Origin: a virus
Taxonomy: Duplodnaviria; Caudoviricetes
Virus record (IMG/VR): IMGVR_UViG_3300031760_000002
Span: 96,001-160,000 of that record
Length of the DNA stretch: 64,000 nt
Direction: 5' to 3' (one strand)
Below are positions 2,735 through 63,385 of this stretch, one piece after another. A model generated the notes under the pieces. It searched no databases, was not told where the DNA came from, and saw only the letters and a list, made by a program, of their open reading frames with translations. Both the position numbers and the translations under genes were made by a program. Position 1 is the stretch's first letter. The number at the start of each line of letters is the position of its first letter.

Positions 2735-2735
2735 T

Positions 2736-5438: not shown

Positions 5439-5439
5439 T

Positions 5440-6378: not shown

Positions 6379-6381
6379 GCA

Positions 6382-7176
6382 TTACTGTCCGAATTGCCGT
6401 CTGGCGACAGGCGCCGAATACGGCGCATCCCATGGTTTTGCAGGGGCGGGCTCCGGCTTCGGAGCCGCCTTGTAGTCGGCGACGGCCTTCCTCGACTCGC
6501 GCATCCTCTGGTTCCAGAGAACGGCATTTGGATCAAGCTCCTTGCCATCCTTCCTGTAGAACTCGCCGGTTTCTCCGTTGAACAGGTGGTTGTAGAACAT
6601 CGGAAGGCTTCTGCGCCCGTCCATCAGCTCCCTGTACATATCCCTCGGCGCGGCATTCGCAGCCGCCGGTGCCGACCGCCTCTTCAGGCCTCCGCCGTCG
6701 TAAAGGTAGAAGTCTCGTTCCTCGTTGGAAAGGCCGTTTCCATGTTCGTTGGCGGCAAGGGCCGTATCAATATGGCTGTTGAACTGGTCCAACCTCTCTC
6801 GAAGCTTAAGCCGCTCCTCCGGCGTGGCGGCTCCGGCCAGCTGGGCCTTCATCCAATTTTCGCCGGCGGACCTGAGCCCTTCAGCGTAACTGGCCCTCTC
6901 CTTACGTTCCCTCGCGTGGCTTCCGCTAAAAATGCTTCCGAGCGCCCTGGTCAGGAGCCATCCCTGCCTGTTGCCGTCTGCAAAACCGTCGTTAGGAAGA
7001 TACCTTGTAATGTCGCCAAGATATTTGTTGTTCTTCGCGAAGTCGAGGGCCATGTTGCGCTGGCCATTCCTGAAGTCGTCGTCTATGGCTATCTTGCACA
7101 GCACGGACGCGTCGTCGATCGACGCCCCAAGCTCCGCGCACTTCGAGAAAAACCCGTTTACATACCCCTGTGTCAT
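6382..7176 (-). CDS. GFxxKCAE-leader protein (putative capsid cargo)
   Basis: N-terminus MTQGYVNGFFSKCAELG...CKIA. Confidence 0.7.
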   Translation of the reverse strand: MTQGYVNGFFSKCAELGASIDDASVLCKIAIDDDFRNGQRNMALDFAKNNKYLGDITRYLPNDGFADGNRQGWLLTRALGSIFSGSHARERKERASYAEGLRSAGENWMKAQLAGAATPEERLKLRERLDQFNSHIDTALAANEHGNGLSNEERDFYLYDGGGLKRRSAPAAANAAPRDMYRELMDGRRSLPMFYNHLFNGETGEFYRKDGKELDPNAVLWNQRMRESRKAVADYKAAPKPEPAPAKPWDAPYSAPVARRQFGQ

Positions 7177-7185
7177 CGGTACCCC

Positions 7186-7554
7186 CTATTTAAAGAAAAG
7201 GTGTTCAACTATAGGCGCAACGACGACAGCAAGTATCGTAATGCCGCAAGTGATCCACACTGCGCTGTTCTTTTCCTTCGTCGCCATTGACGCCTTGATG
7301 CTCGCGATATCCGTCTTCATGTCGTCAAGTCCGCTTATCTTGTCTTTCACTTCCTTCAACTCCGTCCTGAAGTTTTCCATCTGGGCATGCATCGCGGCGA
7401 ACTGCGTTATCAACGGTGGCGTGCCATTGCCGTGCATGACGGTCTTCTCGAGCTTGTCGACCCTGCCTACGAGGCTATCCAGCACGGCCTTGTCCTTCGC
7501 CAGATAGCCACGGACCTCCTCCCGGAACGCCTCCTGTTTCTCCTCTTCAGACAT
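7186..7554 (-). CDS. coiled-coil protein with C-terminal TM helix (holin/XhlA-like architecture)
   Basis: start reassigned to MSEEEK; heptad-rich body, then AVWITCGITILAVVVAPIV. Confidence 0.5.
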   Translation of the reverse strand: MSEEEKQEAFREEVRGYLAKDKAVLDSLVGRVDKLEKTVMHGNGTPPLITQFAAMHAQMENFRTELKEVKDKISGLDDMKTDIASIKASMATKEKNSAVWITCGITILAVVVAPIVEHLFFK

Positions 7555-7555
7555 C

Positions 7556-10042
7556 TTATGCTCCAATCGTATCCACATCGGCGTCGGCGTCTCCGCCGCC
7601 AACGGCCTTGCGCTTCAAATCGAGGGTCAATTTGCCAAGTTGCTTGAAGCAGCTCCTGAGCGAATCCTCCATCTCGATGACGTCGTCGGTACCGTAGCGC
7701 TCTATGAAATCGTTGTGCTTCCAATAGTACAGGAACAGGACTCGGCCAAGACGGTCGACCGCCTGTATGAACTCCGGCAGGTACGAATCGATGACGGCTC
7801 CGGTATCATATACCTTCGCAAGCCCGCCTATCGCGGCCTTGTCGAAGACGTGCTTCTGACCGAGCTTCGCGGCCTCCTGTGCCAGCTGTCCGGCCTCCTC
7901 GTCGAAATCGGCCTCGCCGCCGGCGTCGCCGGACTCCTCCGACTGCCGCGAGATGTCGCCTCCTATGTTCTCTCCCTGGAAATTGTCCGGAGGAGGCAGC
8001 TCAACACCCGTAAACGGCATCTTGGACTCGTCGTAGTACGGAGATTCGTACACCGGGATTCCGGTGTACGGATCCGACTCCGGCGTCTGGCCGCCCGGCA
8101 TGTTCGTGCCAACGCCTACAAACTGTCCAAGTTTGAGCAGACACACCGACTTGCGGTTGACCGAAGCCTCCTTCAAAAGCCTCTTGGCGTCATGCCCGTC
8201 TACCCCAAGCCTCGTAACAAGCATTATCGCAGCCTGCTTGTACCCGTACGGCCGCGTGAAATGACCGCCGTCGAACCTTACGAGAAACTCGCTTCCGGTA
8301 TCCGACTGTATCTCCAGCTTCGCGGCGCCCTCCTTGCGGAGCTCCAGAGTAAGCGAGTCGATCGATCCGAGCCTGTACTCGACCTTGTCCCTCCGCTTCT
8401 TGTCTTCCGTGCTATCCGGGAATGGCGTCGTGTCGGAACCGAAATTTATGATCTCGCCGATCTGCAGCGCCTTCCAGTCGGACGGAAGCACAACGGTGCC
8501 TCCGACCTGTTTTGCGGATCCGGTGAAGTCGGCCAGCTCAATGGCGCTGATATAGCAGCTTCCGACGTTCTTCATGGACCCGTCCCTGTTATGGAACTCG
8601 TCCTTTGCCCAATAGTTGGTGAAATCGTCCTGCGGATCCGGCCTCCAATTGTCCTCCCCGTAGTACGAGAACGATCCGTTTATTACGGGGCGCTCGCCCT
8701 TGTCCCTCTTCAGGCTGGAAACGTGGTACTCCGGCATCGACGTACCGTTCTTGCTGATGAAGATGTAGTCTCCTCTAACCTCAACGTCCGGAATCTTCTT
8801 GGCGGCGTCCATAATGTCCTTTACGCCCCCAACGGCACCGCCTTCCGTGAAGATATCGCGGCTCTTCGCCGTGATCATCTGCCTGTTGTCCGGGAAATAG
8901 ACCACCATGGACGAATTGGCGCCCCTGTGGAACACCCTGTCCATGTTCATGACGTACGCCTTGACGGTCTTTCCGCCGTTCACGAGAACGTTGTAGACAC
9001 CGGGCTTGTCCGGGTTCTGGAAGTTCTTCTCGTAGTCCGTCTCGATGACGTCGGACTTCTGCTCCGGAGGACGGCTGTCGTGCACGATGAACCCGTCCTC
9101 AAGAACCTCCCTGGCCTCGTCCTCGTCCATGGCATCCGAAGTGATCCTGACTTTCGGGGCCTTCTCCGCGATCTCCTCGGCCTGCTTGCGAAGAAGATAG
9201 CAATCGCGGCCATGGTTCGGGTACGAATCGACGTGAAACGCAACCGGTCCTACGTAGAACTCCGCCGCGGCATTTGCCATTTTGACGTTGTTCAGAGACT
9301 TCAGAAGCGTTCTTTCTGCACGAGGGCCTCCCACCTTCAGGATGAAATCCCGAACCGGGGACGAAGCCGACTTCTTGAACGGGGTACGAACTCCACCCAT
9401 CGCGCAGCAGGAACCAACGAACGACGCCTTGAACTCAGGATCGTTGTCGAACCTGTCCTGTATGTCCTTCCTTATTACGTCCCATGCCTCGGCGAACTTC
9501 CACGGCTTGTCGTCGGCAGACGCGTACTTTGCGCTGTACCTTGGACCCCCGAGCGGCCCTACCGTTGGCCTCTGAAGGAACTGGAAGTTCGGATTCTCGA
9601 ACGTAGACTGGTCCCCGGCTATCTCCTGCGACTGCGCCGACGGGGCCTCGTTTCCAAGCTCCTTGGCCTTCCTGTTGATGATGTAGTTGATCCACTCCTC
9701 GGTAAGCGGCACGAACGAATTAGTCCTCTTGGACAGAATCGAATCTATGCCCTTGACCTGGCTGTTCATGAAGAACGCGGGGACGTAATAGTAATCCCCG
9801 TCGATCTTGAACCCGAAGATTCCAACGGCCCTCGTACCGTTCTCGGAGCGGTCTACGACCTCGAACCCCACGATGTACTGCATCAGGGCCGGGGCGCGAT
9901 CCTGGATGAACTGGAACGCAAGATTCGAAAAATCCTGTGCGAACTGCACTTCGTCCGGCTGCTCCTGCGCCTTCTTCTGAAGCCAGGTGTCGACGCCGGA
10001 ATCATGCGTAGCCAGCAGTGAATTGATATCGAGTTTAGCCAT
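7556..10042 (-). CDS. large hypothetical virion protein with repeated K-x-A motifs
   Basis: 828 aa; QKKAQ, AKYAS, KKSAS, VKMAN, RKQAE, YKQAA, LKEAS. Confidence 0.7.
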   Translation of the reverse strand: MAKLDINSLLATHDSGVDTWLQKKAQEQPDEVQFAQDFSNLAFQFIQDRAPALMQYIVGFEVVDRSENGTRAVGIFGFKIDGDYYYVPAFFMNSQVKGIDSILSKRTNSFVPLTEEWINYIINRKAKELGNEAPSAQSQEIAGDQSTFENPNFQFLQRPTVGPLGGPRYSAKYASADDKPWKFAEAWDVIRKDIQDRFDNDPEFKASFVGSCCAMGGVRTPFKKSASSPVRDFILKVGGPRAERTLLKSLNNVKMANAAAEFYVGPVAFHVDSYPNHGRDCYLLRKQAEEIAEKAPKVRITSDAMDEDEAREVLEDGFIVHDSRPPEQKSDVIETDYEKNFQNPDKPGVYNVLVNGGKTVKAYVMNMDRVFHRGANSSMVVYFPDNRQMITAKSRDIFTEGGAVGGVKDIMDAAKKIPDVEVRGDYIFISKNGTSMPEYHVSSLKRDKGERPVINGSFSYYGEDNWRPDPQDDFTNYWAKDEFHNRDGSMKNVGSCYISAIELADFTGSAKQVGGTVVLPSDWKALQIGEIINFGSDTTPFPDSTEDKKRRDKVEYRLGSIDSLTLELRKEGAAKLEIQSDTGSEFLVRFDGGHFTRPYGYKQAAIMLVTRLGVDGHDAKRLLKEASVNRKSVCLLKLGQFVGVGTNMPGGQTPESDPYTGIPVYESPYYDESKMPFTGVELPPPDNFQGENIGGDISRQSEESGDAGGEADFDEEAGQLAQEAAKLGQKHVFDKAAIGGLAKVYDTGAVIDSYLPEFIQAVDRLGRVLFLYYWKHNDFIERYGTDDVIEMEDSLRSCFKQLGKLTLDLKRKAVGGGDADADVDTIGA

Positions 10043-23562: not shown

Positions 23563-23917
23563 ACGAATTAGGCACCTTGGTGGTCGTCGACTTCTCGTTC
23601 TTCCTGAAATAGAACCACTCCATGTACCTCTTCCATGTATCGCCCATTACCTGAAGGTCGTTCCTGCATATGACACACTGCGACGCCTGCACCTTCTTGA
23701 AAAGCTCCTGCATCAGCTTCATGTACTCGAGCCTGTCAGACGACGAGGACATGTCGAATATGGCCACCTTGTAGTCCGTGACCTCGATGGGATACTTGTC
23801 GTACTTGGCCATTTCGACGCCGCGTTCTATCTCGTTCATCGGCGGAAACATGCCCGCAACGCCGCCGGACGACATATCGTACCACGGCGGCATGGCGTTC
23901 TGGATCGGATTCGTCAT
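23537..23917 (-). CDS. hypothetical protein
   Basis: 126 aa, coupled to its neighbours. Confidence 0.6.
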   Translation of the reverse strand: MTNPIQNAMPPWYDMSSGGVAGMFPPMNEIERGVEMAKYDKYPIEVTDYKVAIFDMSSSSDRLEYMKLMQELFKKVQASQCVICRNDLQVMGDTWKRYMEWFYFRKNEKSTTTKVPNSYGKDGDNA

Positions 23918-38022: not shown

Positions 38023-38942
38023 CTGAAGATTTTTCCTCCGAATCCCTTCCCGAATTGTGTCTTTATCGGCGTGTTCGGTTCGCCACGCATTTTTTTATCA
38101 AGCTTCGACCACACCTCGGAATAGGTACGGCCTTTGCCATAGGATTGTATCAGCTTGTTCGTAAAAATTCCACCTGTCCCTGCTCCGTACGAGTATTCAT
38201 TCTCCTGCGACGCCGACCAGCACAGCAGCCTCGGACCCGCCTTTTCGTACCTGTCCAGCGCCTGTTCGACGTACCTGCTCTTCTCGTAGTCCGGAAGCGA
38301 CATGGCATCGGATTTTGCCCTTGAAAGGTCCAAATCCCTGTCGAATTCGTACTTGTGTAGGAACCTACGAAACGTAAACGGGTACGGCCCCGTCTTCATG
38401 TCTATGGACTCCTTGCGGTCTATCGCACGGTACATCGTACCGGAATGGCAGCAATCGAATATGCACATCACCCTGCCCTTCGACTTGCATATTATGGACC
38501 ATATCCGGTCGTCCAGAATCATTCTGTCGTACGGGCAAAGATATTCGTTCCTCCCGTCCGTCTCCCCGAACCTGTTCTTGGATTCGTTCTCGTCCCTTCC
38601 ACCATGACCGGAGTAATAGAATATGCACAGGTCGTGCCCAACGGCCGCTTCCAACGCCGAAACGACGTTTGCCGCGGTGGCCTGCTGGTTCAGAAGCAAC
38701 GTTAGGCCGCCGGACGCGTATTGCTTCAACAGCGAAGCCATGTTGGACGCGTCAATGCCCGCGCCGGGGCAGTTTCCGGCGAACCTGGACTTCTCGAGGC
38801 CGACGCATACCACCGCCGTGTCCTTCGACTCCTCGGACCTGTCCGAAAGCTTCGACTTTATCCTGCCCCAGTTCGCAAAAAGGGTGAATCCCGCTACCGC
38901 GAGCCCCGAGGCTCCGAAAAGAATCTCGCCAAGCATGCGCAA
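38019..38942 (-). CDS. caspase-like/metacaspase cysteine peptidase (C14) with N-terminal membrane anchor
   Basis: FYYSGHGG and IFDCCHSG catalytic dyad motifs; SASQENEYS, GIFTNKL. Confidence 0.88.
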   Translation of the reverse strand: MRMLGEILFGASGLAVAGFTLFANWGRIKSKLSDRSEESKDTAVVCVGLEKSRFAGNCPGAGIDASNMASLLKQYASGGLTLLLNQQATAANVVSALEAAVGHDLCIFYYSGHGGRDENESKNRFGETDGRNEYLCPYDRMILDDRIWSIICKSKGRVMCIFDCCHSGTMYRAIDRKESIDMKTGPYPFTFRRFLHKYEFDRDLDLSRAKSDAMSLPDYEKSRYVEQALDRYEKAGPRLLCWSASQENEYSYGAGTGGIFTNKLIQSYGKGRTYSEVWSKLDKKMRGEPNTPIKTQFGKGFGGKIFR

Positions 38943-38952
38943 ACCTCCGTTC

Positions 38953-39174
38953 TCAAAGGATGAAAAACAGCCAAGACAGCATAAGAAATCCCTCCAGCCA
39001 CAAAATGGACCTCATCATCGACTCGACGACGAAGTCGTACCAGTCGTACCGGACGCCCGGTTTCCTGGGAGGATCCCTGGAAACGGCCAGTACGACGAAC
39101 GACGCCGCCATCACCGACGCGGATACGGACAGCCCTCCGTAAAGCAAATACCGTATGAAATCCTGTATTGACAT
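38953..39174 (-). CDS. small two-TM membrane protein
   Basis: start reassigned to MSIQDFIRY; two hydrophobic helices. Confidence 0.5.
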   Translation of the reverse strand: MSIQDFIRYLLYGGLSVSASVMAASFVVLAVSRDPPRKPGVRYDWYDFVVESMMRSILWLEGFLMLSWLFFIL

Positions 39175-41837
39175 TAACCGCCCTGCTGCATCTGCTGGAT
39201 CATCATTTGCTGTCCTTGCGACGACAGCTGCTGCCTCTGGTCTTGAAGCTGCCCCTTCACCATGGCCCACAGCGTCGGGTTGGTCTGCTTGATTGACGCG
39301 AGGGTCTGCCTTGTATGGGCCGGATTGTTCTCGGCGATCAGCTGCTGCGCGATCTGCTCGGCCTGCTGCGCAACGTCGCCGGGGGTGGCGCCTACCTGGC
39401 CGCCGGGACCGTTCATGCCGCTCCCGCCTCCTCCGCCACCGCCTCCGCCGCCTCCCATGGCGCCGTTGGCCTGCTGGGCCTGGGCGTCCGCCATGGCCTT
39501 CTCCTGCATCTTCTGGACGTCCTGCTGCTCCTTGATGATCCTGCGCTGCTCGTCGAGGTAGTCGATGCCGATCGTCCTGTACGCGGTCTGCTTCGAGATG
39601 TCCTGCCCTGCGGCGGCCTGCATCTGGATGCCCTTCTTCTCGAGGTCGTCGGCGAGCGTGATCGGGGTAAGATGGACTTCGACCGGATCCCACTGCATGT
39701 AGTTGGAGATCTCGTCGGTGATCCACTGCAGGATGTTGTTTATGCCGGAAACGAACGGGTTCCATTCGCGTTCGAACAGCCTGAGCGCAACCGGCGCGGC
39801 CTGCAGCGACAGGGTGCCGGCGAACAGCTCCTGGGGGAATCCAAGCGAGTTCAGGAGCTCCTGGGTCGCCTCCTGGATCGACTCCTTTGGCGCAAGCTGC
39901 TTTGCCTCTCCTCCGATCAGCTCGTACCCGATGGCCCACGGTGCCACTTCGATGGAGGTCATGTTCATACGCTTCTTCTCCACCATGGACGACATGGCGG
40001 CTATGAAGGTCTGCATGGAAATCTGGGTGAGCGGATCCTGGCCTCCCGGCGCGTTTCCCTGCGGGTACAGGATGCGGAACGGCACGATGAAGTCCAACGC
40101 AATCGCTTCGTCGTAACGACGCATGAGCTGGATGTAGTATGCCAGCTTGAAGTAGGGAAGGATCGGCGGGATGCCCCAGCCCTTGATCGGAAGACCGGCG
40201 AAAACGGCGTCCCTGAGATGGTATATCTTGTCCGGATCGAACTCGAAGAGGTGCTCCTCCCCGTCCCCCGTGTGGTCGTCGTTAAGGCAGGTCTCTATGA
40301 ATCCCCAGGACACGTTGTTGATGTAGAACGGGTCTCCCTTCCTGACCCTTTCGACGAACTTGGGATCCATCTTGTAGTAGTACTTCAGCTCTCCGGTGAT
40401 GTCGTTCACCTTCAGCTTTATCCTTTTAGGATCCCAACGGTTTATCCTTATCTTGGAAGTATCCCTTGAACGCCTGTCCACGCGCTTGAACGGAACCTTG
40501 CCATGCTTGCACTTCGGGCATTCGCAAATGAATTCGCCTTTGGTGGCCGAGAACTCGTATTTTATCTTGGATATATGCACCTGTGCACCGCAGCCGGGGC
40601 ACTGCAGGTACCTCTCGAACGGAAGATACACGGAGACGAAGGAGTTTCCGTAGCAGTTTCCCGTCACGAGCCCTCCTTCGAGGGCGAACGTATGCGTTGC
40701 CGGTTCTACGCAGCAGAACACCTCCTCCGTACGGTACCTGCTTCCGATCCTGGTCGGCGAGGTGGCTATCCTGGCCTTCACGGTCTTGGACGTCCTGTAC
40801 AGGTCCTTCTGGTCCTGGCACAGGAAATCGTCCTCGAGAAGGCTTGAAATGCGGAACGGCATGTAGTACCGTTCGTAGTCGGACCATATCCTGCGCTTCA
40901 CGATCGACTTTGGCACAAGCCCCAGCTGTATCATGCCCTCCCGCACCGCGGAAAGCTTCTTCCTGTCGTTGTGGGTAAGGAAGAACGAATTGGCCTTCGG
41001 CTGGAAGAATCCCGATACCGAGGCCATTCCGCCGAAGAATCCGTACCAATACGACCGGGACGCGTTCTTTGGCACGTCCTTCATGGAGGCGTCGACCTCC
41101 AGACCGTATGCGGACTTGTACTCCTCAAGGAACCTGGATTCGTAATAAAGCGGCTTCTCCCTGAGGCCGAAGACTATCCCGTGCAGCCCTCCGGCCACGT
41201 AGTCCCGGTTCTTTTCCGGCCTTGGAACCATGACGACCGGTATCCGGCTGCTCTTCTTGAGCTCGTCCGTCCTGCACTGGACGTAGGCGTGCTCCTCCTT
41301 GCCGTTGCACTTCCTGTACCACCTGTGGTCGGCCGTGACCCTGCACTCCGTGCCGTTCCCGAAATGGACGTCGACCGTCTTCTGCCTGCCGAACGACTTG
41401 AACGACGCGACATGCCACTTTCCGTCTATCGACAGCACCTTGGCCCTCTTTCCGGCCAGGTCCCTTATCTTGAACACGCCCTTGTCCGTGACAACCCTTG
41501 TGCTTCCGCCGAAGCAGAAATAGTCCTTGCCTATGTCCTGCAGCCTCTGGATGATGTTGATGTCCTTGTCGAACACCTTCTCGTACTTCTCGCGTACGTC
41601 GTCGGCCACGTCGTTGATCTCGACATCGGTGAGAAAGTACGATACGACCCTGTTTATGACGGCCATGAACGGCGGTATGGTGAGCATCAGGTACTCGGAC
41701 CACGTGAACGCGTCGTTGATGTTCGTCGGTATGTACGCCGACGCGATGTCCATGAACGGGTTCGGATACTTGTAGGCGTCCGGAAACCTGCCCCCGTCCC
41801 ACGGTGTGCCTGAAAACGCGGATGTATTCTGTGTCAT
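39174..41837 (-). CDS. portal protein with intein and zinc-ribbon insertion
   Basis: spliced extein DIGKDYF|CYGNSFVS, IYHLR...WGIPPI, LGFPQEL; first gene of the morphogenesis operon; start reassigned to MTQNTS because the upstream GTG lies inside a tRNA. Confidence 0.75.
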   Translation of the reverse strand: MTQNTSAFSGTPWDGGRFPDAYKYPNPFMDIASAYIPTNINDAFTWSEYLMLTIPPFMAVINRVVSYFLTDVEINDVADDVREKYEKVFDKDINIIQRLQDIGKDYFCFGGSTRVVTDKGVFKIRDLAGKRAKVLSIDGKWHVASFKSFGRQKTVDVHFGNGTECRVTADHRWYRKCNGKEEHAYVQCRTDELKKSSRIPVVMVPRPEKNRDYVAGGLHGIVFGLREKPLYYESRFLEEYKSAYGLEVDASMKDVPKNASRSYWYGFFGGMASVSGFFQPKANSFFLTHNDRKKLSAVREGMIQLGLVPKSIVKRRIWSDYERYYMPFRISSLLEDDFLCQDQKDLYRTSKTVKARIATSPTRIGSRYRTEEVFCCVEPATHTFALEGGLVTGNCYGNSFVSVYLPFERYLQCPGCGAQVHISKIKYEFSATKGEFICECPKCKHGKVPFKRVDRRSRDTSKIRINRWDPKRIKLKVNDITGELKYYYKMDPKFVERVRKGDPFYINNVSWGFIETCLNDDHTGDGEEHLFEFDPDKIYHLRDAVFAGLPIKGWGIPPILPYFKLAYYIQLMRRYDEAIALDFIVPFRILYPQGNAPGGQDPLTQISMQTFIAAMSSMVEKKRMNMTSIEVAPWAIGYELIGGEAKQLAPKESIQEATQELLNSLGFPQELFAGTLSLQAAPVALRLFEREWNPFVSGINNILQWITDEISNYMQWDPVEVHLTPITLADDLEKKGIQMQAAAGQDISKQTAYRTIGIDYLDEQRRIIKEQQDVQKMQEKAMADAQAQQANGAMGGGGGGGGGGGSGMNGPGGQVGATPGDVAQQAEQIAQQLIAENNPAHTRQTLASIKQTNPTLWAMVKGQLQDQRQQLSSQGQQMMIQQMQQGG
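40656..41516 (-). mobile_element. intein (287 aa) with degenerate LAGLIDADG-like endonuclease region
   Basis: block A CFGGSTRVVT, block B RVTADHRW, C-terminus VFCCVEPATHTFALEGGLVTGN|C. Confidence 0.9.
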
Positions 41838-41850
41838 GTCGCTATGAAGA

Positions 41851-41924
41851 TGGTTGCGGGTCCAGGAATCGAACCTGGTTCGAGGGATTATGAATCCCAC
41901 GTGTTTCCGTTACACCAACCCGCG
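41851..41924 (-). tRNA. tRNA-Met(CAT), initiator-like
   Basis: full cloverleaf, loop TTCATAA, C1xA72 mismatch, encoded CCA. Confidence 0.85.
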
Positions 41925-41942
41925 GTTTATGGAATTTGCACC

Positions 41943-41972
41943 AATATACGGCAAAAACCGCTTCTATGTCAA
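41943..41972 (-). promoter_or_regulatory. sigma70-like promoter upstream of tRNA-Met/portal
   Basis: TTGACA-18 nt-TATATT. Confidence 0.6.
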
Positions 41973-41977
41973 TAAAT

Positions 41978-42040
41978 AAAAAACCGGGCCTGTAGCGAGC
42001 CATGTACTCCCCCAAACCAACAACCGCCCTTGGGCCCGGC
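41978..42040 (-). ncRNA. candidate ~63-nt small RNA
   Basis: own promoter, terminal stem CCGGGCC/GGCCCGG, U-tract end. Confidence 0.4.
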
Positions 42041-42046
42041 AATAGA

Positions 42047-42075
42047 AGTATCGCATATGCGGCGGAAAGAGTCAA
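42047..42075 (-). promoter_or_regulatory. sigma70-like promoter
   Basis: TTGACT-17 nt-GATACT with extended TG. Confidence 0.5.
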
Positions 42076-42080
42076 CAGAT

Positions 42081-42107
42081 AAAAAAAAACGCCGGCCTAA
42101 GCCGGCG
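42081..42107 (-). terminator. rho-independent terminator
   Basis: CGCCGGC-TTAG-GCCGGCG followed by T9. Confidence 0.85.
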
Positions 42108-42115
42108 CCGCCCCG

Positions 42116-42364
42116 CTAGGGACTGTCTTTTTTCAAATCTTTCCGTCTATGCCTTATAGGCACGTCAAGCGATACCCTGAGCAGCCCGCACCTCTTCTTC
42201 GTAGCCTCGTCTATCCTTGCAACCAGCCTGTTGGCCTCGGCCCTGTCAGTGATCTCGAGCTTCGCGCCGTCAAACTCCAGAACCAATACGTCTCCGGTTA
42301 GCTTTTTACGTATGTACCTCGACCGAAGTATCCTGCTTACCAGCGGCTGACCCTCTATCGTCAT
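42116..42364 (-). CDS. hypothetical protein
   Basis: 82 aa, ATGA-coupled. Confidence 0.55.
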   Translation of the reverse strand: MTIEGQPLVSRILRSRYIRKKLTGDVLVLEFDGAKLEITDRAEANRLVARIDEATKKRCGLLRVSLDVPIRHRRKDLKKDSP

Positions 42365-42555
42365 TCCTTGTCCGCCTTTTCGTCCTCTTCAATAGCCTTG
42401 TTCATCGATTCCATCTTGATCCTGATCTGCTCGATGCTGGTCTGCGCTTCCTTCATGATCCCCTGGGCCCTGTTTATGCAGGCGGCCGCCGTCTTGATCG
42501 CCTCGTCGGAAGCTTCCTTGATCCTGGCCTCCGTGGCCACGTTCCTCTTTTCCAT
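42361..42555 (-). CDS. small coiled-coil protein
   Basis: 64 aa. Confidence 0.55.
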   Translation of the reverse strand: MEKRNVATEARIKEASDEAIKTAAACINRAQGIMKEAQTSIEQIRIKMESMNKAIEEDEKADKE

Positions 42556-42559
42556 TTTT

Positions 42560-43144
42560 TTATCCCTTCTGTTTCTTCAGCTCCATTGCGAGCTGGTGTT
42601 CGTCTGAAAGCAACGCGCTCATCACGCAATTGGAGACAAGCGTGTCGCTGAATTCGTTCCTTAGCCTGGCCATGGCCCTGTCTATGCAGTACGCAACCTT
42701 GCCGGCCGTGTCCCATCCTTCGCCCTTCAAATTGATCACGGATCCTACGGCTGACCGGACCGACCCCCTGGCCAGCTCAAGGTACTTCTTCGCCTTCGGA
42801 TCGTCCTTCCTTCCCTGCGTGACCCAGATGTCGTACTTCATGAAAAGCCGTGCCGCCTCCATCAGGTGGTCGAAGCACTCCTGCACGCTGTCCGGCACCA
42901 CCCTGGTGGCTTCGGAACATGTGGCCTTCGTCTTCTCAGTACAGCCCTTTCCCGCGTCCTGCAGACTCTGGATCCGGACTATGATCCCTTTCTTGACGAG
43001 GTCGACGACCTTCCTGTGCAGTTCGTTGCGGCCCATTTTTCCGGCCCTTCTGCACTCAATCCCGCAATCGTTGCAAGCCTTGGCGTACAGCTTCCTGAGC
43101 TCGCTAGTCTCGCATTTGTCTAGATCAAGTTCCGTGAACGTCAT
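42560..43144 (-). CDS. hypothetical protein
   Basis: 194 aa. Confidence 0.6.
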   Translation of the reverse strand: MTFTELDLDKCETSELRKLYAKACNDCGIECRRAGKMGRNELHRKVVDLVKKGIIVRIQSLQDAGKGCTEKTKATCSEATRVVPDSVQECFDHLMEAARLFMKYDIWVTQGRKDDPKAKKYLELARGSVRSAVGSVINLKGEGWDTAGKVAYCIDRAMARLRNEFSDTLVSNCVMSALLSDEHQLAMELKKQKG

Positions 43145-43273
43145 CTCGAAAATCCGGTTGAATGCCGTCCGCGCGACAGGGTTGTCCGATCTACCTGCAT
43201 CTCCTGGGCGACTTACCGGACGGCCATGCCCCGTCCGGTTGTTAGTCTACGCGCGGACCACGTCGTTGCTTCG

Positions 43274-44233
43274 CTACTTCGATTCGAACGAATTGAACTT
43301 GAGCCCCTCGACGATCTTGTCGAACCGCTTGGCGATGAGGTCGTCCCTGTCGCCGCCGATACGGACGTTGAGGTAGGCCGGCTCATAGCTCTGCTTGTCG
43401 GCCGGAACGCTCTTGTAGCTCTTCTGGAAGAACTGGACCTCGTACACGAAGTTTCCGTGCTTCACGTCTACGTGCGACGCCACGAACTTCACGCGGGAGG
43501 ACGGAACGGCGTACTTGCTGCATTCCAGGACCGTCTTCTTGAGGTCGTCGATCATCGGGGTGACGCGCTGCTTCTTCACCTTCGGCTTGGCGGTCGGCTT
43601 CTTCACCGGCTTCTTGAACTCCTTGCCGCCGTCCTTCGCCAAGTCCACGGACTCGTCTTTGGTGGGCTTCGGCTTCGCCTTGAGCGGCGGACGCATCACG
43701 GTGAACGAGGAAACGGCGGTGTCGAACGCCGCGATCGAGTCCTCCAGGATTGGGGTGACGCGAACTATGGCGGATTCTGAGCATACCCTGGTGGTCCCGG
43801 CGTCGTCCTTTTCGGTCTTTCCGACGGACACGGCGAACGAGACGGAATTCCCGTCGTCAAGCTCCGGGACACGCCTGCCGGAAACGTCGAACCCGCTGAA
43901 ATCGAACTTGGACCTCTCCACCATGATGCGGAACATGCGGTCCGCAGGATCGTACCCTGCGCAGCCGGCCGTCTCCTTGCCTCCTTCGACGACCATGCCG
44001 GAAAGGGCCTTGCAGACGTCGGCGCAAGACTGCGCCTCCCTGGACAGGAACCTCATGACGCCCTCCAGCTTTTTTGCCGCATCGGCGTATTCGCCGGCCT
44101 TTCGACGGTTGTCGTCGAACATCTTCCTGACGACAGCGTCCACGTCGAACGGAACCTTGGCCCCGTCGTGGTCATTCTTGCATACGCAAGCCTTCTTGCA
44201 AGCATGCTTGCACGTCTTGTTCTCGTGTTTCAT
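43274..44233 (-). CDS. hypothetical protein
   Basis: start reassigned to MKHENK, downstream of a promoter. Confidence 0.65.
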   Translation of the reverse strand: MKHENKTCKHACKKACVCKNDHDGAKVPFDVDAVVRKMFDDNRRKAGEYADAAKKLEGVMRFLSREAQSCADVCKALSGMVVEGGKETAGCAGYDPADRMFRIMVERSKFDFSGFDVSGRRVPELDDGNSVSFAVSVGKTEKDDAGTTRVCSESAIVRVTPILEDSIAAFDTAVSSFTVMRPPLKAKPKPTKDESVDLAKDGGKEFKKPVKKPTAKPKVKKQRVTPMIDDLKKTVLECSKYAVPSSRVKFVASHVDVKHGNFVYEVQFFQKSYKSVPADKQSYEPAYLNVRIGGDRDDLIAKRFDKIVEGLKFNSFESK

Positions 44234-44269
44234 GTGTGTTTGTTGTTGGTTGGTGGTCAACGCCCGCAT

Positions 44270-44298
44270 ATCATATGAAAAACTTGGTTCTGTGTCAA
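44270..44298 (-). promoter_or_regulatory. sigma70-like promoter
   Basis: TTGACA-17 nt-TATGAT. Confidence 0.7.
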
Positions 44299-45191
44299 GC
44301 CGTTTCGGTGGATTCTTTCTTCTTGTCGACGATGAAGCACAGGCCCATTATGCCAAGCTCCTCTATGTCGAAGCTGACCCCGGTGTATATCGTATCGGAC
44401 ACGGAATCCTTGACCCCTATCCTCACATGCGCGCCGGTCCTCGGCACGAACGTCATGGAGTCGTTGTTCGTAGGGAGTATGACCGTGATCCCGTACAGAG
44501 ACCTTACAACGGCGACGGCCGACACGTTGAAGGTCGTCTCCGTCGTGCCGATCTGCACTCTCGTACGGCGCTTCGACCATTCCTCGAACGGGCCAGGCTT
44601 GACGACCTCCTTCTCGACGACCTTCTCGACCTCCTTGTATACAGGAACCTCCTTCGTGACGTATACGGGCTTCTCCACGACCTTCTCAACGACCTGCGAC
44701 CGCCTTTTCCTGGCCCCCTGCTTCACCGATGGGGCCTCGACGGCCACCTCCTCGGAGACAACTGGAACGGACTCCGTACGAACGGGAACGGGCTCCGTGC
44801 GAACGGCCTCGCTCGCGGTTGCGTCGACGGAGGAGACCGGACCGCCCTGCTCGGGGGCCGGGCCATCCCCGACCTTCATCTTCAGCAGTTCGACCTGCTC
44901 CTCGGTGAGCGCCCCGTGCTGCGCGACGTGCATCTTGTTGTACGGGGAGTTGGACGACGGGTGGTCGTACAGGGCCGGGTCGTTGTCATCGATGCCGCCG
45001 GGGATCGGAGGCAACTCGCCGCGTAGCCTCTTGTTCATGTTCGACGCAGCCTCCATGTAGTCCACGGGCTTCCCGTACGAGATGGCCTTCTTGTTCGGTG
45101 GGATGCCGCCCACGCCGAGCTGTATCCCCGAACCGTCGGTCCTCGGAACCCTGGGAAAATCCTTCAAAGAATCGAATGTGACGTTTTCCAT
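44295..45191 (-). CDS. hypothetical protein with VEKVVEK low-complexity segment
   Basis: 298 aa, GGAGG RBS. Confidence 0.65.
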   Translation of the reverse strand: MENVTFDSLKDFPRVPRTDGSGIQLGVGGIPPNKKAISYGKPVDYMEAASNMNKRLRGELPPIPGGIDDNDPALYDHPSSNSPYNKMHVAQHGALTEEQVELLKMKVGDGPAPEQGGPVSSVDATASEAVRTEPVPVRTESVPVVSEEVAVEAPSVKQGARKRRSQVVEKVVEKPVYVTKEVPVYKEVEKVVEKEVVKPGPFEEWSKRRTRVQIGTTETTFNVSAVAVVRSLYGITVILPTNNDSMTFVPRTGAHVRIGVKDSVSDTIYTGVSFDIEELGIMGLCFIVDKKKESTETA

Positions 45192-45201
45192 GCGTTGCCT
45201 C

Positions 45202-45966
45202 CTATAGAAATTCCGATTTGAATTCGATGCCGGACATCGACGATATCTCCCCGTCGTAATCGCGGCACCTGTTGCGATACCTTCTGTTTATGCCTATCAC
45301 GTCGACGAAGGGCTCCGGCTTCCCGTCGTCCGACGCCGTCTTGACCGACTTGGGGAACAGCACCCTGGCGTTGTCGGTGTAGCCGTAGTTGTTGTCGATC
45401 AGGTACTGGCATGCCGCGCCATGCGACATGTCGTGGAGCAGCCCGCCAGGCATGAACTCCGACGGCCTCGCCATGAACGGGCACGTCGGGTCTATGACAT
45501 GCGGGCAGCACACGTTGTTTGAGCCTATCTGCCAGAAGTCGTCGGAATACCCGTTGAGCGCGTATCCGCAAATGCCGGTCGCATGGGCCATGACCCATCC
45601 GGAAAGCTGCACCATCTTGACGGAGTGGTCGTCCGCAAGAACCCTCTCGACCTTGGAAAGCCCCATTCGGAAAACGGGCCACCAGAACGGGGGAAGCACG
45701 AGGACCGGCCTGTCCTCCTTCACCCGTACGTTCAGGAAGAACGACTCGACCGTTGCGGCTACGGCGGACGTCGTGTTCATCGCCGAAACGGAGGCCCTCA
45801 CGAACGGTATGCCGTCCCTCTCCAGCATCCCGGACACGCGGGACGACCCGGAGATGAAGATCGGCTCGGACGACTCGATCCTGTCGGGAACGGCTGACAC
45901 GTAGGCCGAGCACATGCTCTCTATGCACGGGATGGACGCGGACGGAACCGGGATCAGCACTTTCAT
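45202..45966 (-). CDS. hypothetical protein (possibly a divergent glycosyltransferase)
   Basis: start reassigned to MKVLIPVP, ATGA-coupled to the GT8 gene. Confidence 0.55.
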   Translation of the reverse strand: MKVLIPVPSASIPCIESMCSAYVSAVPDRIESSEPIFISGSSRVSGMLERDGIPFVRASVSAMNTTSAVAATVESFFLNVRVKEDRPVLVLPPFWWPVFRMGLSKVERVLADDHSVKMVQLSGWVMAHATGICGYALNGYSDDFWQIGSNNVCCPHVIDPTCPFMARPSEFMPGGLLHDMSHGAACQYLIDNNYGYTDNARVLFPKSVKTASDDGKPEPFVDVIGINRRYRNRCRDYDGEISSMSGIEFKSEFL

Positions 45967-47840
45967 TTCGAGCACTCCATCGCGATCCTCCTGTTGAGCA
46001 GGAAGGCGGTCGCATAATGCCTCATGGACTCCGGTAGGGCCGTAAGGTCGAACTTGGTCTTCGCGCCAAGCGTGACGAAATGCACCGCGTACGGAACCTT
46101 CCCCGACTTCGACACGTCGTCGCGATACGACGGGAACCACAGGTAGTCCGATATGTCGAAGATCTCGTCGTCCCTGGCACACTTTACGGACGAGTAGTCG
46201 TCGTTCACATGGCAGCACCTGGACCACATGCTCCTGAACAGGAACCTCCTCATGTCGGACTTCGGATTGAACAGGAAGAACCCGCCGAGCGGGAACGCGG
46301 ACGTGTCGTACATCTCGATTCCGAGGTTCCTCGAGATCCTGGTCCGCCCGACGATCATGTTCCTGTCGGTGAAGGTGTCGCACAGGGCGAACAGGTCCTC
46401 CACGTCCCTGAGCACGTACACGTCCGTGTCCATGAACAGCACGAAGTCGTCGATGTCCAGCACCGACGAGCACAACTGCGGAAGGTAGCATCCGATGCCG
46501 GCCCACCTGTTGTTGAGGTCGAAGCACTCCAGGTCGACCTTCGACGGGACGTCGTAGAACCTGCACGAATCGTGCCTGCCGAGCTTTTCGCACACGGCGT
46601 AGAACGAATCCTCGTTGCGGCCGGAGCATCCGTCCGAGTCCGTAAGGAAATGGAACGAAAGCGCCGATCCCGTGTGCTCCATGGCGGACATGGCCGTCGG
46701 AAGGGCCATCTCCACGAAATGCCCGCGCCCGGTGAACGACATCACGACGTTCCTGGCGGAACCGTTCGATCCATGGTACGGCTCCGCGATCCGCTCGACC
46801 GACGGGATGTTCCTGTACTCCCTAAACGACGTCTCGCACCTCAGCTCGCCGACGGCCCGTATCCTGTCGGCAAGGACGACAGCCGGGTTCACCTTCCTGG
46901 CGAAAGGGAACGCGAAAGCGTCCGAATTCCTGTACGCCACCTTGTACGAGGTGGTATGGATGAACAGCGTCCTTCCCGGGTTGTCGATCTCTTCCTCTTC
47001 GTCCTTCGTGAGCTGCCTTCCCATGAACCCGGAATAGTTCGGGCGGTTCGAATCCCCGTTGTTGAAGGTGACCGTCAGCGCAAGCAGGGGGTCGAATATG
47101 TCGAAGTCCAGGCCTTCGTCTATGAGCAGCATGTTTATCTCGCTCTGGTCGTGCCATGCCGCCTGTATTTCCGTCTTCGGATCTACCTTGTCAGGGTAGA
47201 CGTCCCTCCTAACTATGTTCCAGTACGATTTCAGCAGCGCCCAGTCGTTGTCCCTGAGCATCCTGGTGTTGAACAGGAGGAGCCCCGTGCAGACCTCGAA
47301 GTCGATCCCGTTCCTGGAAAGCCTCCTTATCCCGTCCTTCTTGTGCACATACGGGTCCAGCGTTCCGACGAGCACGTTGGATCCGACGTTCGACAGCCTG
47401 TCGACGGACCCACCGTTGGAGAAGACGTCGTTGTCGAAGCACAGAACCTCGTCGTACTCCGGGAACAGCTCCGCGCAGCACGGCTTGCACAGGGCCATCC
47501 TGGCGAACCTGCCGTCGTTCCTGGACCTGGATTCCGACACCCTCGCTACGTCGTCCCTGAACCTGGACCGACCGATGTATTCGTATGTGTCCACGACCGA
47601 CACCGACACGTCCTTCCCGGGGAAGAACACGGGAACCGACTTCAGTATGTCCCTGAACCGCCTTGGAACGCCCTTGGCCAGGATCCTGATGTCCAGCGGG
47701 ACATCCGAGTACATGCACACCGACACGATACTGGTAAGAAGCATCTGCAGGGGGTCCATCCCGTTCGACGACCTTACGTCCACCGACGCGTCCATTATGT
47801 AGAACACGCCGACCCTTCCCATGCTTCCAATCCGTTCCAT
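45963..47840 (-). CDS. tandem two-domain GT8-like glycosyltransferase
   Basis: ELFPEYDEVLCFDNDV...GLLLFN...HDQSEINML; second domain FVLFMDTDVYVLRDVEDLF...GFFLFN. Confidence 0.75.
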   Translation of the reverse strand: MERIGSMGRVGVFYIMDASVDVRSSNGMDPLQMLLTSIVSVCMYSDVPLDIRILAKGVPRRFRDILKSVPVFFPGKDVSVSVVDTYEYIGRSRFRDDVARVSESRSRNDGRFARMALCKPCCAELFPEYDEVLCFDNDVFSNGGSVDRLSNVGSNVLVGTLDPYVHKKDGIRRLSRNGIDFEVCTGLLLFNTRMLRDNDWALLKSYWNIVRRDVYPDKVDPKTEIQAAWHDQSEINMLLIDEGLDFDIFDPLLALTVTFNNGDSNRPNYSGFMGRQLTKDEEEEIDNPGRTLFIHTTSYKVAYRNSDAFAFPFARKVNPAVVLADRIRAVGELRCETSFREYRNIPSVERIAEPYHGSNGSARNVVMSFTGRGHFVEMALPTAMSAMEHTGSALSFHFLTDSDGCSGRNEDSFYAVCEKLGRHDSCRFYDVPSKVDLECFDLNNRWAGIGCYLPQLCSSVLDIDDFVLFMDTDVYVLRDVEDLFALCDTFTDRNMIVGRTRISRNLGIEMYDTSAFPLGGFFLFNPKSDMRRFLFRSMWSRCCHVNDDYSSVKCARDDEIFDISDYLWFPSYRDDVSKSGKVPYAVHFVTLGAKTKFDLTALPESMRHYATAFLLNRRIAMECSK

Positions 47841-47841
47841 G

Positions 47842-48540
47842 CTACTTAGGAACCCCCGGCGCGCCCTTCATGGCCGCCTTCATCCTCTCCCCCTCGACGA
47901 TCCCCTTCCCAAAGTCCGGCATGCCGGGAGGGACGTCGTCCTTGTGCGACTGGTACCATTTCGGGTCCGTCGGCACGACGGTCGACCCGGCCACGACACC
48001 GGGCTTGTTCGAGATGGGCTTGCCGGACGCCGTGGTCATTATGGCCAGGTTGTTCTCGAGAACGGACCTGAGGTCGTCCTTCATGTCCTCGTGGACGACC
48101 GGCTTCACGTCCTCGCGCACGGCCTGCGTGACTACCTTGTCGTTGACCGGATTGCCGGACTCGTCTATGAAGTTCGATTCGGCCTGTATCCTGGCCTCCT
48201 TTTCCCTCTCGGCCCGTATGGCCTTGGAGATGGCCGACTGCCTCTCTATTCTCCTGGACACGATCCTGTCCACGAGCTTGTCGAAACCTCCCCTGGAATC
48301 CGCCCTGCACGCCGTGCCGGGCTCGTCCAGAAGCTCCCCCTCGACCCAGTCCCTCACAATGGACCTAAGGACGCGGAGATCGTTGTCGGACAACCTTACT
48401 TTGAACCCCTTGGTGTCCTTCCGTATCCCGTCGTAGGCCGACACGAATACGTCAAGGTCCCTGGACCTTCCACCGGGAAGTATGGTCTTGTTGGCCAGCT
48501 TCGAATACTTCTGCGAGCCGGAATCGTTTATCAGGTACAT
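47842..48540 (-). CDS. hypothetical protein
   Basis: 232 aa, GGAGG RBS. Confidence 0.65.
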   Translation of the reverse strand: MYLINDSGSQKYSKLANKTILPGGRSRDLDVFVSAYDGIRKDTKGFKVRLSDNDLRVLRSIVRDWVEGELLDEPGTACRADSRGGFDKLVDRIVSRRIERQSAISKAIRAEREKEARIQAESNFIDESGNPVNDKVVTQAVREDVKPVVHEDMKDDLRSVLENNLAIMTTASGKPISNKPGVVAGSTVVPTDPKWYQSHKDDVPPGMPDFGKGIVEGERMKAAMKGAPGVPK

Positions 48541-48601
48541 TCGTCGTCCTCCGTCTATAGCGGCTGGCCCGCCGGCAGGGGCGGGCCGTTCCGCCGTCCG
48601 T

Positions 48602-48865
48602 CTACAGGGAAGCCTGGGCCCTGCACAGGCGCTCCTCGAGGGCCGCCCTGTACATCGACATCGCCTTGCGCTGCTTCTTCAGCATGCGGAGGTTGCACCT
48701 GTCGTCCTTGGTCCTTCCGACCATGGACTCGAGCTTGTCGATGGCCGCGTCGATCTTCACGAGGCGGTCGATGAGCTGCTTGAGCTCCGCCTGCAGCCTC
48801 CTGACGAACGCCGGAAGCTTGGCTACGACCGACGCGACTCCCTTCTTGCTTGTCTTTTCCTTCAT
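48602..48865 (-). CDS. crAss001_48-like small helical protein
   Basis: RL.AEL..L.DRL.K...L..Q..AM..Y..AL.ERL pattern. Confidence 0.5.
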   Translation of the reverse strand: MKEKTSKKGVASVVAKLPAFVRRLQAELKQLIDRLVKIDAAIDKLESMVGRTKDDRCNLRMLKKQRKAMSMYRAALEERLCRAQASL

Positions 48866-49398
48866 TTTTTGTTTTTCCCTTCGGCACCTGCTGTTGCGGA
48901 CGACGTACGGTGCCGCTCCGTCGCCTCGCACATCGCCAGAGACAGCCTCCTCCTGTACCTGGATTCGGCCTTCTCCAGCCTCCTTTCGTTCCTTCTGCGG
49001 TGGAACCCGCCGTTGCACCGGTGGCCCGATACGCCGTTGCGCATGTCCTCCATGTACGACCTGTACGACTTCAGGAACAGCTCCCCCTCCTCCGTTATCG
49101 TGTAAGCCAGCGCACGGTTGAACCCACGCTTCACCACGGGTTCGCCCCTTCCGGGAGGCAGCCTCAGCGGCAGCCTCCTTATGAAGGAGTTCCTCTCGGC
49201 CGACCGTACGATCCGTTCGCAAAGGTGGGTCGCCTTCCTTCTTCCAAGCGACAGGGCTCTGCCCTCGCCGAGCACGGCGCAGGTCATTTCCCAGACGGAC
49301 ACCGGCCTCTCCCTGGTGAATATGCCAAGGAGCTCCGACATCCTCCGCTGGACCCTGTGCGCCTGCGGTATGGAGAAAAAGCCCTGTCCCTTCTGCAT
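48862..49398 (-). CDS. possible winged-helix DNA-binding protein
   Basis: basic; YTITEEGELFL wing motif. Confidence 0.4.
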   Translation of the reverse strand: MQKGQGFFSIPQAHRVQRRMSELLGIFTRERPVSVWEMTCAVLGEGRALSLGRRKATHLCERIVRSAERNSFIRRLPLRLPPGRGEPVVKRGFNRALAYTITEEGELFLKSYRSYMEDMRNGVSGHRCNGGFHRRRNERRLEKAESRYRRRLSLAMCEATERHRTSSATAGAEGKNKK

Positions 49399-62099: not shown

Positions 62100-62215
62100 A
62101 TGAAGGGATGCCAGTCGATCCGGGAATCGCGATCCGCCGGTGCCTGCCGTAGCGCCTCGTTCGAGGATGCGGTGCTGCTCGTAAACGCGTCGGTCCGTAC
62201 GGGACTGGCAGTAAA

Positions 62216-62302
62216 TGGTCGTGGGGGCTGGACTCGCACCAGCGCTGTTTCGAGTGTCACAGATTTACAGTCTGCTGCCTTCGCTGCTCGGCACACCCCA
62301 CG
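62216..62302 (-). tRNA. tRNA-Tyr(GTA) with C1:G72
   Basis: loop CTGTAAA, long arm, CCA. Confidence 0.82.
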
Positions 62303-62307
62303 TAAAA

Positions 62308-62434
62308 ACCGGCGCTCGTGCCCCCGAGCTGCATGCTTTCGCACGGAAGGATTCGAACCTCCGCCTCCGGTGTGCCGCGCTCTGCCAATTGAGCTACCGC
62401 TTTCGCGGGCTGGATTCGAACCAGCATACCCGGC
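62308..62434 (-). ncRNA. two tandem circularly permuted tRNA-like modules (YrlA-like topology)
   Basis: each module: T-arm (TTCGAAT loop), acceptor-like stem capped by GAAA, D-arm GCTC/GAGC. Confidence 0.7.
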
Positions 62435-62441
62435 TTCAAAA

Positions 62442-62515
62442 TGGCACGAAGAGCCAGAATCGAACTAGCATCGGCGGATTTGGAGTCCGCGGTCCTACCA
62501 TTGAACGATCTTCGT
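62442..62515 (-). tRNA. tRNA-Trp(CCA)
   Basis: loop CTCCAAA, A1:U72, G73, CCA. Confidence 0.9.
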
Positions 62516-62516
62516 G

Positions 62517-62596
62517 TGGATACGGAGGCTGGACTCGAACCAGCGACGCGGGGCAAAGCTGTAGGGCCCCCGCACTACCATCTGTGCTACTCCGAA
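62517..62596 (-). tRNA. tRNA with 11-nt anticodon loop (identity undetermined)
   Basis: normal D and T arms, GGGGC-CCTACAGCTTT-GCCCC, CCA. Confidence 0.6.
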
Positions 62597-63356: not shown

Positions 63357-63385
63357 ATTCTATACTAGAACCGTATTTGTGTCAA
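63357..63385 (-). promoter_or_regulatory. sigma70-like promoter of the tRNA array
   Basis: TTGACA-17 nt-TAGAAT. Confidence 0.75.

Follow-up and report, generated by a model that had tools for sequence, protein, structure and literature searches.

In the genome of a cattle-gut phage (an IMG/VR record of 176,839 bp, judged complete by CheckV), 20 tRNA genes form an array that lies entirely on the minus strand and houses a double tRNA-like element of 127 nt composed of two abutting modules. The element occupies positions 62308-62434 (minus strand) of the window, the whole 64,000-nucleotide stretch of DNA that was analysed, and has no ORF beside it. Within the operon it is flanked upstream by tRNA-Trp (CCA anticodon, 62442..62515) and downstream by tRNA-Tyr (GTA anticodon, 62216..62302), both on the minus strand and both found by ARAGORN and by Rfam. 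The spacer TTTTGAA (62435..62441, minus strand) follows the encoded CCA of tRNA-Trp and is a likely 5' processing boundary. The spacer TTTTA (62303..62307, minus strand) precedes tRNA-Tyr, where, by established tRNA processing, RNase P would set the 3' boundary.

Both modules present their parts in the same order: closing stem, variable region, T arm, a short acceptor hairpin capped by GAAA, D arm, and closing stem. All parts are read on the minus strand. Module 1 (62374..62434, 61 nt) has the closing stem GCCG/CGGC (62431-62434 with 62374-62377), the variable region GGTAT (62426-62430), the T arm GCTGG-TTCGAAT-CCAGC (62409-62425), the acceptor hairpin CCGC-GAAA-GCGG (62397-62408), U8 and A9 (TA, 62395-62396), and the D arm GCTC-AATTGGCA-GAGC (62379-62394), followed by G26 at 62378. 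A linker of 2 nt, AC (62372..62373), lies between the two closing stems. Module 2 (62308..62371, 64 nt) has the closing stem ACCGG/CCGGT (62367-62371 with 62308-62312), the variable region AGGC (62363-62366), the T arm GGAGG-TTCGAAT-CCTTC (62346-62362), the acceptor hairpin CGTGC-GAAA-GCATG (62332-62345), C8 and A9 (CA, 62330-62331), and the D arm GCTC-GGGGGCAC-GAGC (62314-62329), followed by G26 at 62313. G18 and G19, the T54-A58 T loop, and G53-C61 are retained in both. The sequence given in the original prediction and every stem that it listed are present here, and its statement that the stems differ between modules and keep their pairing holds: standard base pairs are found at 36 of the 36 proposed positions, and the two modules are 54% identical to each other. 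That identity is near the bottom of the range for the family as a whole, so the pair is not a recent duplication.

An anticodon loop, a discriminator base, and CCA are absent from the sequence of both modules. Circularly permuted tRNA genes are known from Cyanidioschyzon merolae, a red alga (Soma et al. 2007, as cited in 10.1101/312249); there the T arm, which is the 3' half, is encoded ahead of the D arm, the 5' half. The permuted order of parts in the phage element, together with the lack in this phage of tRNA-Cys and tRNA-Phe, both present in the sister phage described below, might suggest a pair of permuted pre-tRNA genes that are processed to functional tRNAs. The C. merolae genes, however, possess an anticodon loop as well as full acceptor stems and yield working tRNAs, whereas the phage modules have acceptor stems of 4-5 bp that are sealed by GAAA, and contain no bulge-helix-bulge motif; moreover, the type of splicing endonuclease needed for permuted pre-tRNAs is not known in bacteria (10.1101/312249). 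This reading is close to refuted by the sequence.

A promoter-like site of the sigma-70 type, TTGACA-17-TAGAAT (63357..63385, minus strand), with 11 of 12 consensus matches, lies between an isochorismatase-family gene and tRNA-Val, the first tRNA of the block. Promoter-like sites in the region are no more numerous than in shuffled sequence, and the site is a consensus match only; it is the likely candidate start of the tRNA operon that includes the double element. Because every gene of the array is on the minus strand and a near-consensus promoter-like site lies upstream, the double element and the tRNAs are likely to be co-transcribed. Such a placement raises the question of a purely cis-acting role, in which the element would be a structured spacer that guides or insulates processing by RNase P, RNase E or RNase Z, a block to exonucleases, or a partial terminator, with no function as a free RNA. 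Its exact position between two tRNAs and the U-rich spacers would suit such a role, as would a weak terminator-like site formed by the D arm of module 2 and a U run. Terminator-like sites, however, are likewise no more numerous than in shuffled sequence, the other tRNAs of the array abut with 0-7 nt between them and need no spacer, and a full elbow mimic is far too elaborate for a spacer or a terminator. We consider a cis-acting role improbable.

Two other stretches of the operon are unusual. Between tRNA-Tyr and tRNA-Ala, a spacer of some 115 nt (62100-62215, minus strand) is near-identical in the sister phage (L010:7712-7829) and contains many paired segments; it is a candidate for a further small RNA of the tRNA operon, and the part of it that was searched has no Rfam match. 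A tRNA-like gene at 62517-62596 (minus strand), whose acceptor, D, and T arms are good, has an oversized anticodon loop; ARAGORN reports it as tRNA-???, and it scores 41.1 bits against the Rfam tRNA model. Its T arm is almost equal to that of module 1.

Against the Rfam model for YrlA (RF02553), module 1 scores 31.4 bits (E 5e-5), with an alignment confined to model positions 23-88 of 114, the tRNA-like domain. Module 2 scores 12.3 bits (E 3.2), which is not significant. Both scores are below the Rfam gathering score of 69 bits, that of module 1 because the Ro60-binding part is absent. In addition, 119 metagenome stretches were gathered by a module pattern and 80 distinct modules were aligned; the resulting covariance model, R2, was trained on these 80 YrlA-type modules, none of them from the window. 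Under R2, module 1 obtains 60.4 bits and module 2 obtains 42.3 bits, where the parts of the score contributed by the T loop, GAAA, and AGCTC are partly circular, since the training pattern was abstracted from these modules, and the parts contributed by the stems, the D-loop GG, and the tertiary pairs are free of circularity. The best score for a tRNA-tRNA junction in the array, a known class of false positives, is 38.0 bits and requires an insert of 17 nt. RNAalifold, applied to the aligned modules, recovers the T arm, the acceptor hairpin, the D arm, and the closing stem with strong covariation. In the consensus structure of 82 modules, 95.7% of cells are paired, and the covariation score is 0.554 versus 0.133 in shuffles. 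Searches with the YrlA model and with a custom covariance model had both been proposed in advance as checks, and their scores, the Rfam alignment to positions 23-88, and the covarying consensus together uphold the claim of a permuted, YrlA-type order of T arm, capped acceptor, and D arm.

The likeness to YrlA extends to details. The permuted order of variable region, T arm, closed acceptor hairpin, U8 and A9, D arm, and closing stem is shared, as are the GCUC/GAGC D stem, the GG-UUCGA-CC T loop, and the tertiary pairs, and short acceptor hairpins capped by GAAA are frequent in the family. An ordinary tRNA was also considered and is rejected, given the capped acceptor hairpins of 4-5 bp, the missing anticodon loop, and the fact that ARAGORN does not call the double element a tRNA. 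The Rfam tRNA model gives a partial match only, at 62345-62397 (29.0 bits), which spans the junction between the modules. We hold with considerable confidence that the double element is a real YrlA-type tRNA mimic that has neither handle nor partner gene.

The minimum-energy fold reproduces the structure of module 1. The folding energy is not better than that of shuffled sequences (z -0.52), and when flanking sequence is added, the two T loops, which are palindromic, pair with each other in the minimum-energy fold, as is common for tRNA-like sequences; folding energies are therefore uninformative about the proposed fold. The Levitt pair (15-48) covaries in the family, being C-G in 57 of 82 sequences and U-A in 20 of 82, and is A15-U48 in module 1 and G15-C48 in module 2. 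Were the D arms partnered across modules, the same positions would read A/C and G/U, both mismatched. The covariation of the Levitt pair between the modules thus supports two independent L-shaped folds. In module 2, C8 stands with G14, whereas 78 of the 82 sequences have U8 with A14; the C8-G14 combination is otherwise seen only in L019 and L130, two of the metagenome loci (designated here by L numbers), and would fit an isosteric replacement of the 8-14 tertiary pair.

Since the closing stems share CCGG cores, a different topology is conceivable. The D arm of module 1, a mini anticodon hairpin of 3 bp (CGG-CACA-CCG), and the T arm of module 2 would form a tRNA body in normal order with a collapsed anticodon arm, enclosed by the outer GCCGG/CCGGT as a terminal stem. 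The partial Rfam tRNA match coincides with this central body, and the two wirings are nearly equal in energy (-48.2 kcal/mol for the alternative, -48.4 for the permuted modules). Against it, the acceptor strands of the central body pair at just one of seven positions, its Levitt positions are the mismatched A/C and G/U rather than A-U and G-C, and both T arms run directly into their own capped hairpins. The poor acceptor pairing and the Levitt mismatch across modules decide for two independent permuted modules and make the alternative wiring very improbable.

The element is unlike YrlA in what accompanies the tRNA-like domain. It has no Ro60-binding helix: the Rfam match ends with the tRNA-like domain, and the U-rich flanks TTTTGAA and TTTTA, next to tRNAs, cannot pair. 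Nor does the complete 176,839-bp genome contain a match to TROVE/Ro60 (PF05731) by a search whose positive control was found in two genomes. The original prediction had seen neither a Ro60-binding stem nor a Ro60 gene and had suggested a genome-wide TROVE search; both absences are confirmed, the second now for all 177 kb. A canonical Ro60-bound YrlA is accordingly rejected, there being no binding helix, no TROVE gene, and no score that reaches 69 bits. Also absent from the complete genome are RtcB (PF01139) and Band-7 (PF01145), for both of which the controls matched, and an Rnl2-type RNA ligase. DUF2828/DUF7788 has no match in the complete genome, either with the protein of locus L048 or with PF25043, a model that finds the gene of the sister phage at 150 bits. 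DUF7873 is not found among the 71 ORFs of 170-340 aa in the whole genome, which match 12 Pfam families. No further YrlA-type module occurs elsewhere in the complete genome.

One close relative, the sister phage G003, was recovered through the flanking proteins and the tRNA-Tyr sequence as a fragment of 36 kb (loci L010 and L207). Its array includes the tRNA-Cys and tRNA-Phe genes that are missing here. In the slot between tRNA-Trp and tRNA-Tyr, G003 has tRNA-Cys and a 126-nt stretch that consists of two hairpins; both carry the motif (A/T)ACAGCAAAC, after which comes an A run. The stretch folds better than shuffled sequence (z -2.83) and has no Rfam match. G003 also encodes a DUF2828/DUF7788 protein of 555 aa, 37% identical to the L048 protein, and two more motif hairpins lie directly upstream of its gene. 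The four hairpins, each carrying (A/T)ACAGCAA(A/C)C on a 7-bp stem, and the 555-aa gene are found at L010:7499-7624 (G003 about 23590-23715), L206:499-2163, and G003 about 5630-5790. In metagenome loci L048 and L089, YrlA-type elbows beside DUF2828/DUF7788 proteins are likewise flanked by this motif on a stem, and the ACAGCAA-type stem probably serves a Ro60-like particle as its protein-binding handle. The window contains no match to ACAGCAAAC; those looser matches that the genome does contain resemble coding sequence, not hairpins (a judgement from context only), and one of them is conserved in the sister phage.

The DUF2828/DUF7788-associated Y-like RNAs thus share with our element the type of elbow, in L048 and L089, and the tRNA-Trp/tRNA-Tyr slot, through the hairpins of the sister phage; they differ from it in having the stem with the ACAGCAA-type motif and in travelling with the protein. 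In the present phage, the neighbourhood of the DUF2828/DUF7788 gene has been replaced by other DNA between conserved flanks, and the absence of the gene is therefore no artefact of an assembly end. The sister phages are mosaic: G003 2024-8751, the DUF2828/DUF7788 block, corresponds to 38283-49374 of the present genome (G000), where other DNA stands in its place. The lineage thus uses Y-like RNAs in its tRNA array, and here the slot contains handle-less elbows and the protein is missing. Beyond G003, no module scores above 40 bits in two complete relatives (RNA polymerase identity of 71-73%) or in two further phages, and blastn of the region against the phage collection gave no match. The double element is known from one genome only, and its closest relative has a different insert in the slot.

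This distribution bears on the main rival to a functional RNA, namely a neutral relic that folds and does nothing, whether recombination debris of tRNA genes in an array that changes fast or the remnant of a Y-like RNA that has lost its Ro60-like protein and handle. The contents of the slot differ between sister phages, the element is missing from all relatives examined, and the protein and motif hairpins of the sister phage are both lacking here, with the gene neighbourhood replaced. The T arm of module 1 also resembles those of its neighbours, GCTGG/CCAGC being found in the odd tRNA at 62517-62596 and in tRNA-Tyr. Against a relic, both modules are flawless in every helix, at the elbow positions, and at the Levitt positions; each has a shortened acceptor stem with a GAAA cap, and the modules have diverged strongly yet are fully compensated. 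No remnant of a handle is present, and a handle-less double layout occurs independently in two other loci, described below. A relic is unlikely on this evidence, though it is the alternative that we take most seriously.

YrlA-type modules in metagenomes occur in several gene contexts. A TROVE ORF lies within the locus in 60 of the 119, a count made with six Pfam-verified TROVE ORFs, and 15 of these 60 loci also have RtcB. Band-7 is found in 11 of the 119, together with RtcB in 6 of the 11. Two to three T arms follow one another in series among the Band-7 loci (L035, L038, L091, L092, L112, L113, and L129), and chains of modules lie beside Band-7 in the genome contigs L172-L174 and L182 as well. 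The chains lie directly upstream of the Band-7 (SPFH) gene in L035 (2395-2630), L091 (11890-12126), L112, L113, L092, L172-L174, and L182, and abutting modules of T arm, capped hairpin, and D arm are visible in L035, L172, and L174. In these chains, too, the Levitt pairs match within modules and not across them. A full anticodon-like terminal arm is present in at least L091/L038, L092/L104, L172, L174, and L182; L104, which has the same RNA as L092, has no Band-7 ORF in the stretch examined. The Band-7-associated chains correspond to the Band-7-associated tRNA-like RNA (b7a-tRNA; Burroughs and Aravind 2016) and the YrlA beside Band-7 genes that are described, the former by citation, in 10.1101/312249.

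The phage element resembles b7a-tRNA in having multiple abutting tRNA-like modules per RNA, and in the alignment module 1 is closest to the first modules of the Band-7 RNAs, at 74-75% identity. Taken with the adjacency of two- and three-module chains to Band-7, often with RtcB, and with the published association (10.1101/312249), this likeness could indicate that the phage RNA is not a competitor at all, and instead serves as a cofactor of RNA repair or decay encoded by the host (RtcB with Band-7, or Rsr/Ro60 with PNPase), as the multi-module RNAs beside Band-7 and RtcB would. The Band-7 RNAs, however, are bacterial and lie upstream of Band-7, whereas the phage has neither RtcB nor Band-7, and those listed above end in the full anticodon-like arm that the phage RNA does not have. 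A cofactor role is therefore quite unlikely in our estimation, less so than a cis-acting one.

Handle-less doubles with abutting modules, in the same layout of closing stem, linker of 2-3 nt, and closing stem, were found in two metagenome loci. The L080 double (L080:8880-9033, minus strand) has the closing stems GAGG/CCUC and CCCG/CGGG, joined by the linker AAA, and its second acceptor hairpin is long; tRNA-Val and tRNA-Ala flank it, and the surrounding stretch of a metagenome contig of 218 kb contains 14 tRNAs and a tmRNA. The L068 double (L068:1300-1434) has the linker AA and a first acceptor hairpin capped by GUAG, on a contig of 3.8 kb whose ORFs have no PHROGs match. These are independent recurrences on unrelated metagenome contigs. 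The arrangement is less unusual than the original prediction implied, since abutting doubles occur also in L068 and L080 and chains of modules lie beside Band-7 and RtcB genes.

Single elbows with no TROVE in the stretch examined occur in phage contexts in L019/L130 (beside a tail protein), L084 (a tail fibre and 18 tRNAs), and L001/L002. The strict module pattern has two matches only in IMG/VR, these same L001 and L002, which are single YrlA-like RNAs with another 5' arm. A pattern specific for the tandem arrangement found mostly tRNA-like genes in normal order from Phocaeicola phages, with an anticodon loop of 4 nt. In a family of Phocaeicola phages or prophages (L151-L168, L185, L197) this tRNA-like gene comes immediately after a stop codon and has intact acceptor, D, and T arms and an anticodon arm of 4 bp with the 4-nt loop; in L157 and L165, which are large phage contigs, a similar gene has a loop of 5 nt.

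What appears to be new relative to YrlA is that the tRNA-like domain is doubled, handle-less, and partner-less: the phage element consists of two modules with a 2-nt joint inside a phage tRNA operon, with no Ro60-binding helix and, in the whole genome, no Ro60/TROVE gene. Our literature search found no description of handle-less tandem elbows in phage tRNA arrays, and none of Y-like RNAs associated with DUF2828/DUF7788. Chen et al. 2014 (PMC4201824) restricted their report to candidates no more than 4 kb from Ro60 and removed those that overlapped tandem tRNA genes, so that elements like the phage double were excluded by design. YrlA's tRNA-like domain adopts the L-shape of tRNA (Wang et al. 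2018, bioRxiv 10.1101/312249), and the same study proposes that it binds an effector, which it leaves unnamed, specific for the elbow and the T and D stems.

The reading that we prefer, with somewhat less than even confidence in identity and mechanism taken together, is a small RNA of two tandem YrlA-type domains that acts as a free competitor or sponge, or as a scaffold independent of the ring protein. The element would be transcribed together with the phage tRNAs and released, as a single small RNA of about 127-139 nt, by 3' processing after tRNA-Trp and by RNase P at tRNA-Tyr. In each of the two domains, the T arm would stack on the GAAA-capped acceptor hairpin of 4-5 bp and the D arm would dock on the T loop, giving a tRNA elbow, and a stem of 4-5 bp would replace the anticodon stem. 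With no anticodon, no free CCA end, and no handle of the Ro60 or DUF2828 type, such an RNA could neither decode nor be charged, nor could it bind a ring protein. It would offer two tRNA corners with YrlA-type D and T stems to a factor that binds this surface, and during infection may act as free competitor, sponge, or ring-independent scaffold for an elbow-binding effector of Y-RNA particles and RNA-repair systems. To our knowledge, no binding partner is known even for YrlA's tRNA-like domain.

Because the RNA could not bind a ring protein, its simplest role is that of a free competitor or sponge, and a ring-independent scaffold or a cofactor of host RtcB/Band-7 is the next option. A role as decoy or sponge is plausible. 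The original prediction suggested a bivalent decoy against tRNA-sensing or tRNA-cleaving defences. Most known tRNA-cleaving defences read the anticodon loop, a part that is missing from this RNA, which makes a decoy against them less likely than one directed at the elbow; a factor that binds the elbow or the T and D stems seems the likelier target. A broader proposal, which we regard as unlikely in its full form, is that handle-less multi-elbow RNAs (those of this phage, L080, and L068) constitute a distinct and so far undescribed class of phage tRNA mimics in tRNA arrays, acting as bivalent decoys that titrate an elbow-binding effector of the Ro60-like particles of a host or rival phage, or of systems that repair or sense tRNA damage. 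Were it true, multi-elbow decoys would be an RNA-based device of counter-defence or of competition between phages, and the opposing strategy would be that of the sister phage, which has the protein and, in this slot, the motif hairpins.

Comparison of the two sister genomes shows what look like the halves of a Y RNA, separated. The double element suggests that YrlA's tRNA-like domain can work alone and, having no handle, would be a natural bait for the effector of that domain. Should the free double elbow turn out to act as a decoy, an RNA-only tool would be added to the conflict between phage and host over tRNA and RNA repair.
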